A stretch of DNA of 64,000 bases from NCBI GenBank assembly GCA_036439915.1, contig GCA_036439915.1_3065.1. One strand, 5' to 3'. Shown here in pieces: positions 1,701 through 57,666 of this stretch; the stretch's first letter is position 1; every line of letters begins with the position of its first letter. The stretch is from a phage. Position numbers and translations under genes: made by a program. The notes under the pieces are model-generated. The model searched no databases and had not been told where the DNA came from. It worked only from the letters and a program-made list of their open reading frames with translations.

Positions 1701-2384
1701 TTATCGTTTTGTTGGAAGAGATAGAGGATCGCACTCTTCCTCTGATGGAGCGTCTTCAAAACCCATAGCATACCGCAAAGCATACTTCATCATCAGGATG
1801 TCTTTCGCACAGTCATGAATGGAATCATGTGCAACAAATCCATCTAAAGTTCCCTTTGGAAGAGGACATGTGGTCATATCACGAACAAGCAGAAGTGCTT
1901 CAATTCTGGTACGAATATCACGCTGATTCCAGAATTTACATGGTTCTAACTTAAATGTGTCAAGTTCATTCTCAGAAACGCCATTAAAACGTTGAATATC
2001 ACGAATGAGATCGACTAAAATTGGAAAATCAAACGACATTCCACGGCACCAACCCTGAGATTTCCAAGGATCGATATTATGCGCATTGATGTAATCATTG
2101 AATTTTGCAATACCATCAATAGTGCTTACATCTTCATCTGACGGTGCAATATTTTTTCGAGCTTCAGGGGATTGATTCTTCCACCATTCGATAGTGCTTT
2201 TAGTAAAAAGACGATGTCCTTTTTGGCTTTTTAAATCAAATTTGATTTTAATGCCACGTGAAACTAATTCATCGAATGTTTCAACGACTTCTGGATTAGG
2301 GTCAAAAGCAATTACAGCTAAATCAATAACAGCTGCCTTTTCGCCGCTTCCCATTGTTTCAAAATCTATAATAAAATCAAACAT
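1701..2384 (-). CDS. dexA: exonuclease A (DEDD 3'-5' exonuclease)
   Basis: 227 aa, N-terminal FDFIIDFETMG exo motif, same length as T4 DexA, located next to dda. Confidence 0.8.
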   Translation of the reverse strand: MFDFIIDFETMGSGEKAAVIDLAVIAFDPNPEVVETFDELVSRGIKIKFDLKSQKGHRLFTKSTIEWWKNQSPEARKNIAPSDEDVSTIDGIAKFNDYINAHNIDPWKSQGWCRGMSFDFPILVDLIRDIQRFNGVSENELDTFKLEPCKFWNQRDIRTRIEALLLVRDMTTCPLPKGTLDGFVAHDSIHDCAKDILMMKYALRYAMGFEDAPSEEECDPLSLPTKR

Positions 2385-2626
2385 TAAATTTTCCTTGCTA
2401 AATCGCGAATTTGACCTACAGTATAGTCTTGAATATAAACTTTATTAATAGGCTCATCAATAAATTTTGCCATAGATTCAATGTCTTTTTGTATCTCTTC
2501 AAGACTGTATACTATCTTTGAAGCTTTTTCGCGAATAGTAATATTTTCAGGACCCGGATTTTCTTCAATGACAGCTTTAACATTTGCCATAAGAGATTTA
2601 AACTGATACCAACTTAATTCAATCAT
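2384..2626 (-). CDS. hypothetical small protein (dexA.1-like position)
   Basis: 80-aa ORF, start overlaps dexA stop. Confidence 0.45.
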   Translation of the reverse strand: MIELSWYQFKSLMANVKAVIEENPGPENITIREKASKIVYSLEEIQKDIESMAKFIDEPINKVYIQDYTVGQIRDLARKI

Positions 2627-2879
2627 TAATAATCGCCTTATAAAGATGGCTAATTTCGCCTAAAACATAATCACTGATTGTAACAGTTTTCACTTCACCA
2701 CAAAAGAATTCTAACGCAATTAAATCTCGTTCAATTTCTTCTAATTGAAGCCTCAACTTACTAGATTCAATTTTTACATTTCTACGATTTTTACTATAAG
2801 CTATTTCATAAATTTCGCTCACTTTATCTTGAAGCAGATAAAACTGATCTTTAGTTATTTCCACGAATAGCTTCCTCAA
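2619..2879 (-). CDS. hypothetical small protein
   Basis: 86-aa ORF in tightly packed early region. Confidence 0.45.
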   Translation of the reverse strand: MRKLFVEITKDQFYLLQDKVSEIYEIAYSKNRRNVKIESSKLRLQLEEIERDLIALEFFCGEVKTVTISDYVLGEISHLYKAIIND

Positions 2880-3111
2880 ATTTAATTAGTAATTTACAGA
2901 CACTTTCATCTAGTGTAATTACCGTATCTGTATTACTGTGATATGATTGTTTTTCAATTCGTTTAATTGCTAATATAGTATCACTTATAAGATAAAGCTT
3001 ATGAAGGAGCTCAGCTCCTGTTACCATAACATCGAGATTATCTTGCTTATTAGTATGCTTCCTTATACCATCTATTAGACGATTTAAATATTTTGAATTG
3101 ATGTTAATCAT
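2851..3111 (-). CDS. hypothetical small protein
   Basis: 86-aa ORF immediately upstream of dda. Confidence 0.45.
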   Translation of the reverse strand: MININSKYLNRLIDGIRKHTNKQDNLDVMVTGAELLHKLYLISDTILAIKRIEKQSYHSNTDTVITLDESVCKLLIKFEEAIRGNN

Positions 3112-3117
3112 ATAGCC

Positions 3118-4437
3118 TCACACATAAAACACATCATAACGACCACGTGTTACACCAACGTAAAGAAGTTGTTGAGCTAATTCAGCATCTGCATAATGAA
3201 TACAAGGCGTATAAATGAAAGCACGGTCTACAGACATACCCTGAGCTTTATGGAATGTTGATGCAGGAAGTGCTTTCACTTTACTGAACTGTGATTTAGC
3301 ATCCCAAAAATCACTCCATGGAGCTTTTCCGCCTTTGTTCCAATTTTTATAAGTTTCTGCCGTTTTACCTAAAAATAGGTTAAACTTATATAGCTCTTCA
3401 TCAGATGAAATTATTTTAATCTTTTCACGATAATATTCATCATCGCCGTAAGTTTCTACTGTTAAGTCCCAATGACGAATTAGATATTCTCCAGGAACAC
3501 CACGAGCTTTAACAAATGTTGATGTATACTCTGCTTCTATAATACGAACTAATTGTCCATTATTAAAAATAATTTCTGATACAGGCTTTCCATCAATTTT
3601 ATATGTTTTAATTAATGGTTCCTGCATTACAATAATTTCACCAACAATAAAATCTTTATCAGTTTCAAAAATCTTTTTACGAATAATGCTATTTAACTTG
3701 TCAACAGATTTATTCGTAAATGCCATTACGCGATTTTCAAACAAATCATCTAGTGATTTGACGATTGAAAAATAATTTACCATAAAATCGCGTAAAGCGG
3801 TATCACCAGTAAATCCACGTACTCCATGCCCGTCAACAACTTTATCATAAATCCACTTACCGTTGCGAACATCAGTAGCTACATCAATAATAGGAGCATT
3901 ACTGCGTTTAACTTCAGTGAGTTCACACTGATAAAAATCTTTGTGTGTAAAAAATGGACTGATATAAGCAGTGTTTTCTCCTGGGTCAACAGGTCTAATT
4001 TGCTTATTATCACCTATTCCAATTATAGTACACCAAGGTGGAATAGTTGAAAGCAGAATTTTAAATAGCTTTCTATCATACATTGACACTTCGTCGCAGA
4101 TTAATACCCTGCATTTAGCTAAATCTGGTACTTCCTTCTGTTCAAAAAGAACGTTTTCTTCATATGTTACTGGGTTAATTTTAAGAATACTGTGAATAGT
4201 ACTCGCTTCTTTCCCCGACAGTTTTGAAAGAATCTTTTTAGCTGCATGTGTAGGAGCTGCCAAAATGATACCAGTTTCGCCCGTAGATATTAAAGCTTCA
4301 ATGATGAACTTAGTAAGAGTAGTCTTACCAGTACCAGCAGGTCCATTAATAGTTACATGATGTTTCTTTTCTTTAATAGCCCTCATAACGATGTTAAAGG
4401 CATTTTTCTGACCTTCGGTCAAATCATCAAATGTCAT
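3118..4437 (-). CDS. dda: Dda DNA helicase (SF1)
   Basis: 439 aa, Walker A GPAGTGKTT, same length as T4 Dda, synteny. Confidence 0.9.
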   Translation of the reverse strand: MTFDDLTEGQKNAFNIVMRAIKEKKHHVTINGPAGTGKTTLTKFIIEALISTGETGIILAAPTHAAKKILSKLSGKEASTIHSILKINPVTYEENVLFEQKEVPDLAKCRVLICDEVSMYDRKLFKILLSTIPPWCTIIGIGDNKQIRPVDPGENTAYISPFFTHKDFYQCELTEVKRSNAPIIDVATDVRNGKWIYDKVVDGHGVRGFTGDTALRDFMVNYFSIVKSLDDLFENRVMAFTNKSVDKLNSIIRKKIFETDKDFIVGEIIVMQEPLIKTYKIDGKPVSEIIFNNGQLVRIIEAEYTSTFVKARGVPGEYLIRHWDLTVETYGDDEYYREKIKIISSDEELYKFNLFLGKTAETYKNWNKGGKAPWSDFWDAKSQFSKVKALPASTFHKAQGMSVDRAFIYTPCIHYADAELAQQLLYVGVTRGRYDVFYV

Positions 4438-7720: not shown

Positions 7721-7924
7721 TCACGATTTATCACCATAAATATCTCTCATTAATTTAAGAGCTGAGCGCTCTAATTTCTTTTCTTGCTCAGCTTTAATCA
7801 TAGATTTCATCCACTCTTCTGATTCATTCTGCATTTCTTTATTTGCTTGTTCAACCCAGCCATCATCAATATACATTGAGTTTGGTCGATTAAACCATTC
7901 AAATATTTTCTTTAGGACTTTCAT
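7721..7924 (-). CDS. hypothetical small protein
   Basis: 67-aa ORF. Confidence 0.4.
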
Positions 7925-9317: not shown

Positions 9318-9458
9318 TTACAATTTAGCGGCTTTCCAGAGTTGTTCAATAATCTCTTGGTCTATTTCTTTAGTTATTTCATTACGTAATAAAGCAGTAA
9401 GGGCTTTCGCCCTTTTCTTATTCAACTTTTTGAGTTGACGTTTATTTAAACAAGCCAT
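9318..9458 (-). CDS. small ORF translationally coupled to gene 56 (TAATG)
   Basis: 46-codon ORF MACLNKRQL... read from sequence; below the ORF-track size cut-off. Confidence 0.3.
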   Translation of the reverse strand: MACLNKRQLKKLNKKRAKALTALLRNEITKEIDQEIIEQLWKAAKL

Positions 9459-9976
9459 TAATAACCTCGGTCTTGACGCGCGAAATTTTCAGCATTTTTC
9501 AGGTAATAAAGTTTAAAGATTTCTTCTGCTGTAAGACCAAGACCCTGGAACATATTCAGAACGAAATGAAGAATATCAATCATTTCAAATTTAATTTCTA
9601 ACTGGTCTTGCGGAGACAAATCAGTAATCAGAGTTTCACGACGTTCACCATGCTGCGACTTCCAAGGTTTCCATACAGCAGATGCGTCTTTTTCACCATT
9701 ACTCATACCACCAAGAGAAGTCAGAAGTTCACGGAATTCATCATCAATATAATCTTTCTGATTGCGTAGCCAATCAACAACTTCACCTGCAGTAGCCAAA
9801 TCATCAGGATGACGGTTATATTCAGGTTTATCTTTAGCTAAACGAACCTGTAAAGATTTCTGCATATCAAGCATAACCTGCAGTGGGTCTTTTTCATCAC
9901 CAAGAATATCCCAGTATTCATTTTGAGCTTTATCAGCGCCTTCGATCAGTTGACTACATTCATTAAAGTAAGCCAT
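9458..9976 (-). CDS. 56: dCTP pyrophosphatase gp56 (MazG-like)
   Basis: 172 aa from internal Met (MAYFNEC...); strong similarity to remembered T4 gp56; ORF-track N-terminal extension is promoter-region read-through. Confidence 0.85.
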   Translation of the reverse strand: MAYFNECSQLIEGADKAQNEYWDILGDEKDPLQVMLDMQKSLQVRLAKDKPEYNRHPDDLATAGEVVDWLRNQKDYIDDEFRELLTSLGGMSNGEKDASAVWKPWKSQHGERRETLITDLSPQDQLEIKFEMIDILHFVLNMFQGLGLTAEEIFKLYYLKNAENFARQDRGY

Positions 9977-10010
9977 TATTTTTCCTTTCAATTCATGGGT
10001 TAGTAGATTA

Positions 10011-10036
10011 ATTATACAATAAATATATAAAGCAAT
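10011..10036 (-). promoter_or_regulatory. middle-type promoter (MotA-box TGCTTTA, 11 bp, TATAAT) upstream of 56
   Basis: minus strand ...TTGCTTTAtatatttattgTATAAT... followed by AAAGGAAAAATA-ATG. Confidence 0.4.
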
Positions 10037-10047
10037 AAGGAGGACAT

Positions 10048-10248
10048 ATGGTACAAAAATTAATGGCACTTGTTAATGCCATCAAAGGTAATAAAAAACG
10101 TATAGCTTTTACTATTTCTGCTATGGTAGGAATTTTACTCTGGAACTTTATTTTATCACCAATTGCAATTGCGCATGGTGTTAATATTCCAGTAGTTACT
10201 CTCGATACATTCGTAGATTTAGCATTTGCTTTAGTTGGGTTGATTTAA
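10048..10248 (+). CDS. plus-strand small membrane protein candidate (convergent, at the T4 dam position)
   Basis: 66 aa, two hydrophobic segments; AAGGAGG 4-5 nt before ATG; stop overlaps gene 61 stop. Confidence 0.4.
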   Translation: MVQKLMALVNAIKGNKKRIAFTISAMVGILLWNFILSPIAIAHGVNIPVVTLDTFVDLAFALVGLI

Positions 10249-11273
10249 ATCTTAGCATATTTAGATAGCCGCATTTTAGCCATCAACCCCTGGGCAATAT
10301 TATTTTTCATATATTCCATAATTTGTTCAGGGGTTGCACCTTCCTTTCTAATCATATCATTGACATCTTTTGATTTCCAGGGAGATTTATCCCAAAACAT
10401 AACCCTTTCTCCTGCATCAACTAATTTAGTCATTCGCTTGATAGTGTCAGGGTGACGAGGTTCATTATCTAAAACCCACACTCGTCTATCTTTAAATGGA
10501 ACAACTTCTAGGTCTAATTGACCACCCGTAATAGCTATACCATTTTCAATAAAAAGCGAATCTATAGGTCCTTCTAGAACATATACATCGCCATCTTTAA
10601 CTCGTTCGACTCCATATATTTTTGTTGCCTCAGGATAAGCTTTAATGGTGATATATTTTTGAGGAGCATCTTTCTTTAATGCACGTCCTTGAAAAGACTC
10701 AGCTTTTCCATTAGCATTATAAATTGGAATAACAAGACGAGGCTCAGAAATTTCCTTTTTGTATGTTCCTGGTGCTATGCTATTAACTAATTTAGGCCAT
10801 TCGGTTGTAAACCAAAGATATTTCCATTTATCCTTTGGAATACAACGAGCTTTTACGTATTTTATAATTGGATGGTCTTCCGCCAGTTTATCTAATCTAA
10901 CACATGACGGAAGAGATTTAATTATTTTCTTCTCAGGTTGTTTAGGAAGTTCTTTAGGTTTTTCTACTGGACGACTTTTACCTTTTTCTTTTCTTATTTC
11001 AAAGATATACTCACGATATAAATCGGGTTCAAACTCCTTTAAATATATTCCGATTGGTGCGTGATAGTTACAGTTATAACAATGAATATTTCCTTCATTA
11101 TTATCACCATAATACCATCCACGAGCTTTATTCTGATCGGTTTTTGAATCTCCACAAACGGGGCATCTAAACCGCAATTTAAAAGTTGAACTATTATTTA
11201 CTTGTGTGAATTTAGGTAAATGAGCCAATGCACGATACGCAAACTCATTATCAATCCAAGGTATTGATGACAT
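10245..11273 (-). CDS. 61: DNA primase gp61
   Basis: 342 aa, zinc-finger CPVCGDS...CYNC, Toprim region, same size as T4 gp61. Confidence 0.9.
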   Translation of the reverse strand: MSSIPWIDNEFAYRALAHLPKFTQVNNSSTFKLRFRCPVCGDSKTDQNKARGWYYGDNNEGNIHCYNCNYHAPIGIYLKEFEPDLYREYIFEIRKEKGKSRPVEKPKELPKQPEKKIIKSLPSCVRLDKLAEDHPIIKYVKARCIPKDKWKYLWFTTEWPKLVNSIAPGTYKKEISEPRLVIPIYNANGKAESFQGRALKKDAPQKYITIKAYPEATKIYGVERVKDGDVYVLEGPIDSLFIENGIAITGGQLDLEVVPFKDRRVWVLDNEPRHPDTIKRMTKLVDAGERVMFWDKSPWKSKDVNDMIRKEGATPEQIMEYMKNNIAQGLMAKMRLSKYAKI

Positions 11274-11441: not shown

Positions 11442-12083
11442 TTAACCTTTATTCATAAAAGCATTAAAAATTTGATCGTCAATAGAAACATTTACTTTAG
11501 ACTGTTTTTCTGATGGTAATTCATATCCACATATTACAATTTTGTGATCAATATCAAAATACACAGAAGCAATATGATTAATGATGTTTTCAGTAAAGTC
11601 TAAATCAACATCAATATCTTTTTGACCACAGCCCAAAGGATAAATAATGCGAGTAATTCGATTATCTTTAACAAATATTCCACCGACATACTCTGTGCTG
11701 CGTTTAAAGTTTACACGTTTCCTAAATGAAAAATATTCAGGTTCTTTATGGGCTCGACTCATAGGGCTTAAAGTGTATTCCGAATATGAAATATCAAATC
11801 CTACACCTTCAATATGAGCCAACGCGTCATGATTAAACCAATTATAATCATATGCCAAATCCATTATATTGTAATATGTGAAAGGCACCGGATTAACATC
11901 ATGTGTTGTACCTTTAAAATCTGCCCAGGCAACGATTTCGTTATCTTTAACAATTACAAAAATTGTGTCAATAAGATATCCACGGTTATTTTCATCAGGC
12001 GTTATATTATAACATTGTGCATCAGGAAATTTACCGTATTTAAACGGTGGATTTTTGTGCATATAATAAATCATATTATTCAC
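11442..12083 (-). CDS. hypothetical protein (61.2 position)
   Basis: 213-aa ORF; track start is GTG, an ATG lies 3 codons in. Confidence 0.55.
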   Translation of the reverse strand: MNNMIYYMHKNPPFKYGKFPDAQCYNITPDENNRGYLIDTIFVIVKDNEIVAWADFKGTTHDVNPVPFTYYNIMDLAYDYNWFNHDALAHIEGVGFDISYSEYTLSPMSRAHKEPEYFSFRKRVNFKRSTEYVGGIFVKDNRITRIIYPLGCGQKDIDVDLDFTENIINHIASVYFDIDHKIVICGYELPSEKQSKVNVSIDDQIFNAFMNKG

Positions 12084-15962: not shown

Positions 15963-16811
15963 TTAATCAACTGCTATTGGATGAATAGCATTAAACTTAT
16001 GAAACGCTTCTGATTTTTCTTTGCGCGAAACACACATGCGAAGAACCTTTAATGGCTCGTCTTCTTCACCTAATGATTTTCGTTTTTCAATATTCGATGT
16101 TTTCCAACGAGCTTGCTCTGGAAACTCTCTATTGATTTGCTCAAGCGCTCTATTATGTTTTGAATTACTACGAATTGAACTACATCCGCCAGGAGCTTGT
16201 GCTTTTCCGGATACAACCAGATATTTGAACAAGGCCAAATGCGGATAACCTTGATTAATTAAATTGAGAAATGCGTACATATCTTCGCATAAATCAATTT
16301 TTCCATACCCAATTTGTTCTGTTGTAAGTTTTCCAAGGTCATACCATGTATTCGTGAATCCATATGAATTTTCACGATAATTACCCCAAGATGAAGTAAT
16401 TTTAAAAATAGGTAGACGAGCATGGCCATGATAATACCCGCAATCCATGGCATCTTCAACGTATTGAATTAATTCATAGAACTGTTCACGGGTTAATTGA
16501 TTAATTTTATCTACGCAGCGACGATCATCTTTCTTTCGCATTGAACTCATACGAATAGTAGTATCATCATCGATCATCCAAATTCGCTGACCTGCATACA
16601 TATCAGTAATTGCTTTACGAGTTCCAGCAATTCCATTAACATCATCAGGAATAGTTATAATTTTAGCTCTAGACCCATAAGCGTCATAATAAGCTTTTTC
16701 TTCGTGTTTACGTACTACAATATGAGGTTCATAATCAGATGGAAACATATCAAGGGCAGAAACTGCCCCTACGCGTTGATAGCTTGGAATTACGAATTGA
16801 ATCATTTCCAC
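15963..16811 (-). CDS. glycosyltransferase, possibly T2/T6-type HMC glucosyltransferase
   Basis: 282 aa, DXD-like IWMIDDD; occupies the T4 beta-gt locus but is shorter than T4 beta-gt. Confidence 0.5.
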   Translation of the reverse strand: MEMIQFVIPSYQRVGAVSALDMFPSDYEPHIVVRKHEEKAYYDAYGSRAKIITIPDDVNGIAGTRKAITDMYAGQRIWMIDDDTTIRMSSMRKKDDRRCVDKINQLTREQFYELIQYVEDAMDCGYYHGHARLPIFKITSSWGNYRENSYGFTNTWYDLGKLTTEQIGYGKIDLCEDMYAFLNLINQGYPHLALFKYLVVSGKAQAPGGCSSIRSNSKHNRALEQINREFPEQARWKTSNIEKRKSLGEEDEPLKVLRMCVSRKEKSEAFHKFNAIHPIAVD

Positions 16812-54332: not shown

Positions 54333-54694
54333 TACAAACTCTCAGTAAAGGTACGAGCGATAACATCGCGCTGCTGTTCCGGAGTCAGAGAGTTAAAGCG
54401 AACTGCATAACCTGATACACGGATGGTCAACTGCGGATATTTTTCCGGATGCTTAACTGCATCTTCCAGAGTTTCACGACGCAGAACGTTAACGTTCAGG
54501 TGTTGACCACCTTCAATTTTAACTGTAGGCTGTGGCTCAATTTCAATTTCACGGGCATGCAAACCGTAGAAAATTTCTGGGTCTACAAAAGAGTCCTCTT
54601 TAAAGGTTTTAGAGACAATAATTCGTGCTTGAATACCATCTTCAAAATAAATAGTACCTTTATGTGTGCCTTCAAGAATTTGATATGCTTTCAT
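54332..54694 (-). CDS. autonomous glycyl radical cofactor (GrcA/YfiD-like)
   Basis: 120 aa; C-terminal about 60 aa match my memory of E. coli GrcA including [12 protein letters not shown]. Confidence 0.8.
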
Positions 54695-57210: not shown

Positions 57211-57666
57211 TTAAAAGAGGCTGTTCATTATTCGGTAAAGTGAAGGACCCATCACATATTGCCACTGAGTACGAGGAATAAGAGCAAAAGCATCCATCTC
57301 TGGAATCATAACGCCATCTTTATTTTCAAAATAAGACTCGCAATGGCAATTTCTGAACATCTCATGCTCTACTGGAATCGTATAATAAAATAACTGTAAG
57401 TCTTTATTACTAGAATATTTAAATACACCTAGGTCTTCTAGAAGGTCTGGATTATAATTGCTAAAGCCAGTCTCTTCTAAACATTCTCTTTTTGCAGCTT
57501 CCAGTGCGCTTAAGTCAGAACTTTCTACACGGCCCTTTGGAATATCCCAGCGATGTGCCATCATTCCAGGCTTACGAGAACCAGTAACCCGACCCATAAA
57601 TAAATCTTTATCTTCTGTCATAAAGATAATACCAGCTGATAATGTTTTCATTTTAATTTCCTGCAT
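57211..57666 (-). CDS. nudE: Nudix hydrolase
   Basis: 151 aa, Nudix box GRVESSDLSALEAAKRECLEETGF. Confidence 0.8.
   Translation of the reverse strand: MQEIKMKTLSAGIIFMTEDKDLFMGRVTGSRKPGMMAHRWDIPKGRVESSDLSALEAAKRECLEETGFSNYNPDLLEDLGVFKYSSNKDLQLFYYTIPVEHEMFRNCHCESYFENKDGVMIPEMDAFALIPRTQWQYVMGPSLYRIMNSLF

Follow-up and report, generated by a model that had tools for sequence, protein, structure and literature searches.

Gene Layout between Genes 56 and 61

The window, by which we mean the whole 64,000-nt stretch of phage DNA that was analyzed, closely resembles Tequatrovirus genomes. It aligns nearly end to end with CAM-21 at ∼96% identity, and the region near the ORF described below is 96-99% identical to genomes of this genus, e.g., CAM-21 and wV7. 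Genes 56 and 61 are separated by 268 nt on the minus strand, in agreement with the spacing of about 270 nt given in the original prediction for this locus, and between them lies a plus-strand ORF of 66 amino acids. As that prediction also stated, this frame is the sole occupant of the gap (the ORF list holds no other frame of at least 30 amino acids there) and is antiparallel to both neighbors, its stop codon (10246-10248, plus strand) overlapping that of gene 61 (10245-10247, minus strand). The features of the interval and its flanking genes, in window coordinates, are the following.

9458-9976, minus strand: gene 56 (dCTPase/dUTPase), the left neighbor; Pfam dUTPase_2, phrog_173 with E = 1.5e-46
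10011..10037, minus strand: MotA-dependent middle promoter of gene 56; MotA box TATTGCTTTA at 10028-10037, -10 element TATAAT at 10011-10016
10018..10025, plus strand: predicted T4-type late promoter AATAAATA, the A(-13) variant of TATAAATA; from motif depletion and conservation
10037..10043, plus strand: Shine-Dalgarno sequence AAGGAGG, 4 nt before the ATG; read directly
10048..10248, plus strand: CDS of the 66-aa small membrane protein, ATG start, stop included; phrog_2024, the same as wV7 YP_007004774 and RB32ORF030w
10050..10085, minus strand: terminator-like hairpin (stem 10085..10060) with a TTTTTG tail; terminator scan, fold, and SA20RB annotation
10102..10173, plus strand: codons 19-42, predicted transmembrane helix with W32-N33-F34 and P38; hydropathy, AlphaFold2, and alignments
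10174..10245, plus strand: codons 43-66, turn H-G-V-x-x-P and then a predicted hydrophobic/acidic C-terminal helix (D53, D57); alignments and AlphaFold2
10245-11273, minus strand: gene 61 (DNA primase), the convergent right neighbor; phrog_47 with E = 1.1e-106, and annotation in relatives

The interval between soc and gene 56 is a further indel hot spot adjoining gene 56. In the window it holds a 46-aa ORF (9318-9458, minus strand; hypothetical in wV7), in T4 the homing endonuclease gene segF, and in other relatives soc.2-like ORFs. Homing endonuclease genes are also found close to the 66-aa ORF in two relatives, and in both the ORF is intact: in DK-13 such a gene lies between the small ORF and the primase gene (2872-3621 of locus L006), and in Kosakonia phage 305 it is located toward gene 56 and flanked by two ORFs annotated as pyrophosphohydrolases (514-1164 of locus L027).

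Relation of the ORF to dam

The original prediction placed the T4 dam gene between genes 56 and 61, which is correct according to the T4 annotation, and it reported no methyltransferase at the present locus. The latter observation extends to the whole 64-kb window, against which a tblastn search with T4 Dam returned a best E value of 0.9. A genome-wide search for a dam homolog, for which the complete CAM-21 genome served as the relative, was also negative (best E = 1.6, compared with 4.8e-164 for the T4 positive control). It had been allowed beforehand that dam might lie elsewhere, with the present arrangement being simply typical of dam-less T-even phages; the second half of that statement holds and the first does not, in that the locus is typical of dam-less T-evens and no dam was detected at another position in the window or in CAM-21.

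The proposal that the small ORF occupies the slot held by dam in T4 failed on inspection of T4 itself, which has dam plus the same 66-aa ORF, 97% identical to that of the window. The T4 copy (NC_000866 17738-17938; 3739-3939 of locus L003) lies between the dam start and the gene 61 stop, in a 310-nt stretch between those two points that carries no annotation in NC_000866. The two proteins differ at two residues, A25T and I39V, and the stop codons of the ORF and gene 61 overlap in T4 as they do in the window. In the alignment, dam together with ∼110 nt upstream of it appears as an indel between the ribosome-binding region of the ORF and the MotA box of the gene 56 promoter. Because the ORF and dam coexist in T4, the initial interpretation of the locus is only partly supported.

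The survey of phage records gives the same picture. A T4-type Dam (at least 90% identity) is present in ∼182 records and a Tequatrovirus-type ORF in ∼503, so the dam-less layout is the commoner one, and gene 56 also stands directly beside the ORF in Mosigvirus, Gaprivervirus, and Dhakavirus phages and in a metagenomic relative (locus L018). Judged from these records, dam is an optional cassette that roughly one Tequatrovirus entry in three carries, and the ORF is the constant neighbor of the primase gene. The reading in which genes 56 and 61 flank a swap site, where the ORF arrived as alternative cargo in place of dam, starts from a real observation, the presence of dam there in T4 and its absence in the window. 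It is refuted by the occurrence of dam and the ORF together in T4 and in T2-type genomes (e.g., locus L010), and also by the ORF keeping its place next to the primase gene in every genus, with or without dam, small-ORF, or homing-endonuclease insertions on either side; we give it essentially no weight. The T4 Dam cassette and the ORF are alike only in their neighborhood, since Dam is an unrelated protein encoded on the opposite strand. Nothing, then, replaces dam at this locus, and the dam-less layout is common.

A 186-aa ORF that overlaps the start of dam occurs in ∼156 dam-carrying Tequatrovirus records, T2 included and T4 not; examples are 1841-2401 (minus strand) of locus L010, which is IMGVR_UViG_2974787500_000001, and 16007-16543 of T2 MH751506. 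Its Pfam match to the GATC-specific DpnII restriction endonuclease is weak and sub-threshold (E = 0.0045), and this ORF might be left over from a GATC restriction-modification pair or be one partner in it.

Conservation and Coding Evidence

The window protein gives a full-length hit to phrog_2024 (E = 1.5e-31; residues 2-66 align to positions 1-65 of the 65-position profile), a family whose members include RB32ORF030w (YP_802972), wV7 F412_gp242 (YP_007004774), SA20RB_031, and S16 gp16.1. With the same position, the same orientation, and a full-length profile match, the window ORF is a member of this family and differs from it in no respect; the gene family is thus already catalogued, with the label "hypothetical" across hundreds of genomes, among them wV7, RB32, and SA20RB. 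A protein 100% identical to that of the window is present in 68 phage records, and 693 records hold an ORF of the Tequatrovirus, Mosigvirus, or Gaprivervirus type. Two distant queries match 164 and 183 records, the second set mostly re-finding Tequatrovirus records.

Beyond these genera, an HMM search of 1.8 billion representative proteins gave nine matches, all of them small family-like proteins. The two weak matches (E ∼ 1e-4) whose context was inspected are syntenic, on the plus strand and placed between the dCTPase side and the primase gene, and tblastn with those two recovered orthologues in Gelderlandvirus (S16 gp16.1), Moonvirus, Jiaodavirus, Kanagawavirus, and Dhakavirus; a Karamvirus member was added by the fold search. 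The two subfamilies align with each other in a profile-profile comparison (hhalign) at a probability of 98.6% and E = 5.5e-16. The ORF is therefore kept in at least eight Tevenvirinae genera, which answers the question of conservation raised by the original prediction. Synteny was compared at loci from T4, wV7, ST0, DK-13, JS98, S16, Moon, PKO111, KLB31, and Kosakonia phage 305 and at the metagenomic loci L017 and L018, and at all loci inspected the ORF is on the plus strand, on the dCTPase side, and convergent on the 3′ end of the primase gene.

The coding signals that had been claimed for the ORF are present. The strong AAGGAGG ribosome-binding site is at 10037-10043, and a GGAG-containing Shine-Dalgarno sequence precedes the ATG in 14/14 lineages examined. 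Codon usage was scored as a log-odds value trained on the long genes of the window; the ORF reaches 0.33 per codon, compared with 0.375 ± 0.11 for those genes, and so is indeed T4-like, and of the other five frames four score between -0.7 and -1.2 and the fifth 0.05.

Substitution patterns were analyzed in 17 loci gathered from Tequatrovirus, Mosigvirus, and Gaprivervirus. By the Nei-Gojobori method, dN/dS is 0.09-0.44 in 10 pairs from the three genera. Within groups it is 0.09-0.13 in three of five pairs and reaches 0.56 among Gaprivervirus-type sequences; between genera it is 0.19-0.44, with synonymous sites saturated. Differences between genera number 29/12/40, 30/11/36, and 32/13/42 at the first, second, and third codon positions. 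The strand opposite the ORF is noncoding, so an overlapping gene cannot account for this constraint. With dN/dS, codon usage, and synteny all in agreement, the 66-codon ORF is confirmed as a real plus-strand gene that is conserved and encodes a small membrane protein. Purifying selection acts on it in at least eight genera of Tevenvirinae.

The reference annotations of T4 (NC_000866) and JS98 thus omit a gene that is under purifying selection and that, as described below, is preceded by a late-promoter-like motif. The ORF has no annotation in NC_000866 or in JS98 EF469154 (1474-1674 of locus L025), though it is annotated in hundreds of T4-like records. Our search of the literature on T4 ORFs, ribosome profiling, transcription start mapping, and late promoters found no paper describing it, and a T4 multi-omics paper contains no mention of antisense or unannotated features (PMC9697503).

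A Predicted Late Promoter and Overlaid Minus-Strand Signals

Early and middle transcripts of T4 all run counterclockwise, which corresponds to the minus strand of the window, and a clockwise gene is therefore expected to be late. T4 late promoters carry an 8-bp TATAAATA box at -13 to -6. The box AATAAATA lies 22 nt before the ATG of the ORF; transcription is predicted to begin near 10031, which would give a leader of 17 nt that includes the Shine-Dalgarno sequence. At -13 this box has A in place of T, a substitution also seen in 9 of 50 T4 sites (PMC2988020), and among the late promoters of relatives that position is not well conserved (PMC1524935).

The heptamer ATAAATA is avoided in the window, where 12 copies occur on both strands compared with 40.9 ± 6.7 in shuffled sequences. 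Six of the seven minus-strand copies are found 25-40 nt upstream of ORFs, including soc, the lysozyme gene e, and the endonuclease VII gene (49). Being scarce and mostly placed before ORFs, the motif is informative in this genome. All 14 lineages have [A/T]TAAATA at 14-22 nt upstream from the ATG; in two of these, S16 and Moon, the sequence is ATTAAATA, which departs from the core at one position. The full TATAAATA occurs in Kosakonia phage 305. At the 8.2-kb locus L018, the only plus-strand ATAAATA is that of the ORF, and the only minus-strand copy precedes soc.

The late core does not keep a fixed position relative to the minus-strand MotA box across genera. The dam-less Tequatroviruses have it inside the spacer of the middle promoter that serves gene 56. 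Mosigvirus has it to the ORF side of the MotA box, and Gaprivervirus immediately adjacent to the box; T4 and T2-type genomes, which lack a nearby MotA box, carry it in unrelated dam-proximal sequence. The conservation of the core in nonhomologous contexts, taken with the avoidance of the heptamer, leads us to infer that the ORF is transcribed late in a gp55-dependent manner, which we regard as likely on these sequence patterns. The base at -13 is A, G, or C in all lineages except one, which has T, and for this reason the promoter may be weak. In lineages with a gap of 14-16 nt, the predicted transcript starts at or within the Shine-Dalgarno sequence.

Like the T4 late genes soc, e, and 49, whose TATAAATA promoters are served by the gp55/gp33/gp45-modified RNA polymerase, the ORF has the core at a comparable distance ahead of a Shine-Dalgarno sequence and an ATG; it shares with T4 late genes the orientation opposite to early and middle genes and a motif that is otherwise avoided. 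Unlike the consensus late sites of the window, its gap between core and ATG is 14-22 nt rather than 25-40 nt, and unlike the promoters of the T4 late genes, its predicted promoter has no promoter annotation in the T4 records inspected (NC_000866, X01416). A σ70-type promoter on the plus strand was considered and dropped, as a scan returned sites no more frequently than in shuffled sequence. Further plus-strand copies of ATAAATA occur in the window at 7736-7742, 11640-11646, 54647-54653, and 57596-57602, and downstream of these no convincing ORF preceded by a Shine-Dalgarno sequence was seen; the four copies may either serve as late promoters antisense to the early genes that contain them or have survived by chance.

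Two minus-strand signals share this DNA. The middle promoter of gene 56 aligns with T4 P(M)16.53 as annotated in X01416 and has an 11-nt spacer, and the SA20RB annotation likewise has a middle promoter at this position. The plus-strand late core lies within that 11-nt spacer. The overlap between the ribosome-binding site and the MotA box noted in the original prediction exists and amounts to a contact of 1 nt. The second signal is the terminator-like hairpin, located 3′ of gene 61 and within codons 1-13 of the ORF. Its fold is stronger on the minus strand (-12.4 kcal/mol, z = -4.2) than on the plus strand (-6.8 kcal/mol) owing to G-U pairs, and it is annotated as a terminator in SA20RB. Within 75 bp there is, then, a compact overlay in which the predicted late promoter sits in the spacer of a divergent middle promoter and the terminator of one strand sits in the coding sequence of the other.

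The hairpin was not found on the minus strand of the Mosigvirus, Gaprivervirus, or distant loci. Its restriction to Tequatrovirus marks it as a lineage-specific overlay, and for the same reason we rejected a conserved minus-strand terminator as the cause of N-terminal conservation. Phages of the L018 type have a GC-rich hairpin between the two stops. A separate long hairpin, AACCCCUGGGCAAUAUUAU...AUAAUUUGUUCAGGGGUU, is present in the 3′ end of gene 61 (10284-10336, both strands); the 110-nt segment there has z = -2.9 and no U-tract. The terminator scan of the window found no plus-strand intrinsic terminator after the ORF, so that a late transcript would run antisense into gene 61.

These overlays raise two readings in which the peptide is not the selected product. 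The frame might be a chance and untranslated by-product of regulatory DNA, that is, of the gene 61 3′ UTR and terminator joined to the gene 56 promoter. The region does hold a minus-strand terminator and a middle promoter, and the curated annotations of T4 and JS98 leave the ORF out; set against this are a dN/dS well under 1, clear three-base periodicity, a strong Shine-Dalgarno sequence and ATG that are kept, and a frame that stays open at ∼25-55% protein identity across at least eight genera. The terminator hairpin, moreover, is specific to Tequatrovirus, and the ORF is not. We consider a by-product of this kind very improbable. A late plus-strand RNA, antisense to the 3′ end of gene 61 and its terminator, might instead be the main selected function, with the peptide secondary and with the RNA bringing about late shutdown of primase expression or transcriptional interference. 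Convergent genes, overlapping stops, and the lack of a following plus-strand terminator in the window speak for such an RNA. It leaves the constraint at the protein level unexplained, however, and in phages where the L018-type hairpin or the DK-13 homing endonuclease gene separates the two genes, the ORF and the motif are kept nonetheless, which makes an RNA-first function unlikely in our judgment.

On balance, the account that probably fits the whole of the evidence best is that of a conserved late gene for a small inner-membrane protein to which dam is unrelated. If this is true, a late, clockwise gene for a small membrane protein is situated inside the early replication cluster of the best-studied phage. 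Throughout Tevenvirinae, at every locus inspected, the ORF opposes the early replication genes and converges on the 3′ end of the primase gene. For a family already catalogued, the value added here is small and consists of the conserved late-promoter evidence and the missing annotation in T4 and JS98.

The Protein and Its Possible Role

The two hydrophobic segments described in the original prediction appear as Kyte-Doolittle maxima over 19 residues of 2.02 (residues 23-41) and 1.86 (residues 48-66). AlphaFold2, run with the family alignment, models helices at residues 2-12, 16-42, and 52-65 with a mean pLDDT of 76. Conservation is heaviest in the transmembrane helix and in the turn and helix that follow, not at the N-terminus; the Trp and Pro are invariant and the Asn near-invariant in both subfamily alignments. 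In the shared core, a basic cluster precedes a transmembrane helix that holds W-N-[F/Y] and Pro, and [H/K/Y]-G-x-x-L-P-P-x-x-[L/I]-[E/D] follows. The basic cluster K13, K16, K17, and R18 argues for a cytoplasmic N-terminus, and the hydropathy and the model together make a single transmembrane helix with the N-terminus in the cytoplasm the somewhat favored topology. The protein may cross the membrane again at its second hydrophobic segment, in which case the topology would be different. The conserved transmembrane helix, turn, and C-terminal helix suggest contacts inside the membrane or at its periplasmic face.

Searches for relatives outside the family returned little. Neither the protein nor distant members hit any family significantly in Pfam and NCBIfam scans, a profile search against PDB sequences turned up nothing beyond a chance match (E = 2.4), and the AlphaFold2 model compared with BFVD retrieved family members only, one of them automatically named "Holin". 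Taken across Pfam, NCBIfam, and the HMM search of 1.8 billion proteins, no similarity to anything outside the family of the ORF was detected.

The automatic name raises the question of whether the protein is a holin or a pinholin-type hole former, as one UniProt entry has it. The protein is small, with one or two hydrophobic helices and a polar Asn in the membrane, and is probably late; it has the minimum of one transmembrane domain expected of a holin (by hydropathy and by AlphaFold2 helix 16-42); and one member bears the name "Holin" in UniRef and BFVD. The family scans do not agree with this name, as the window protein has no Pfam or NCBIfam holin match, and the sole weak hit, GTA_holin_3TM at E = 0.1, comes from one distant member and is far below the cutoff. 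Nor does the C-terminus resemble the charged hydrophilic tail of holins: it reads ...DLAFALVGLI, is hydrophobic in all members, and the charge cluster is N-terminal instead. In addition, these phages already encode holin T (annotated in CAM-21), and the gene is not near the lysozyme gene e. A role as a hole former is improbable on this evidence.

Several small envelope proteins of T4 offer a further comparison, namely Imm (83 aa, two membrane spans), the RI antiholin (97 aa), and Sp. The ORF product is like them in small size, membrane association, and a likely envelope role. It is unlike Imm and Sp in that these are early genes on the other strand, and unlike all three in having almost no extramembrane domain; no sequence similarity to them was detected.

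Returning to the late inner-membrane protein that we prefer, the gene product would be a protein of 60-69 amino acids, its gene transcribed late from a minimal gp55-type promoter of its own and translated from the strong Shine-Dalgarno site. After the G-x-x-L-P-P turn, a short, amphipathic, acidic C-terminal helix would lie at or beyond the periplasmic face of the membrane. The protein would associate by helix-helix contacts inside the membrane, either with further copies of itself or with a different envelope protein, and would thereby modulate some late event at the envelope, for example the timing of lysis, lysis inhibition, or envelope integrity. That the protein is a modulator of a late envelope or lysis-related event is a tentative suggestion of low confidence. 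It seems less likely still that it forms an unrecognized part of the T-even lysis and lysis-inhibition machinery or of late envelope control; were it so, the Asn-containing helix and the L-P-P-x-x-L-[E/D] segment would act on holin T, RI/RIII, the spanins, or a host envelope protein.
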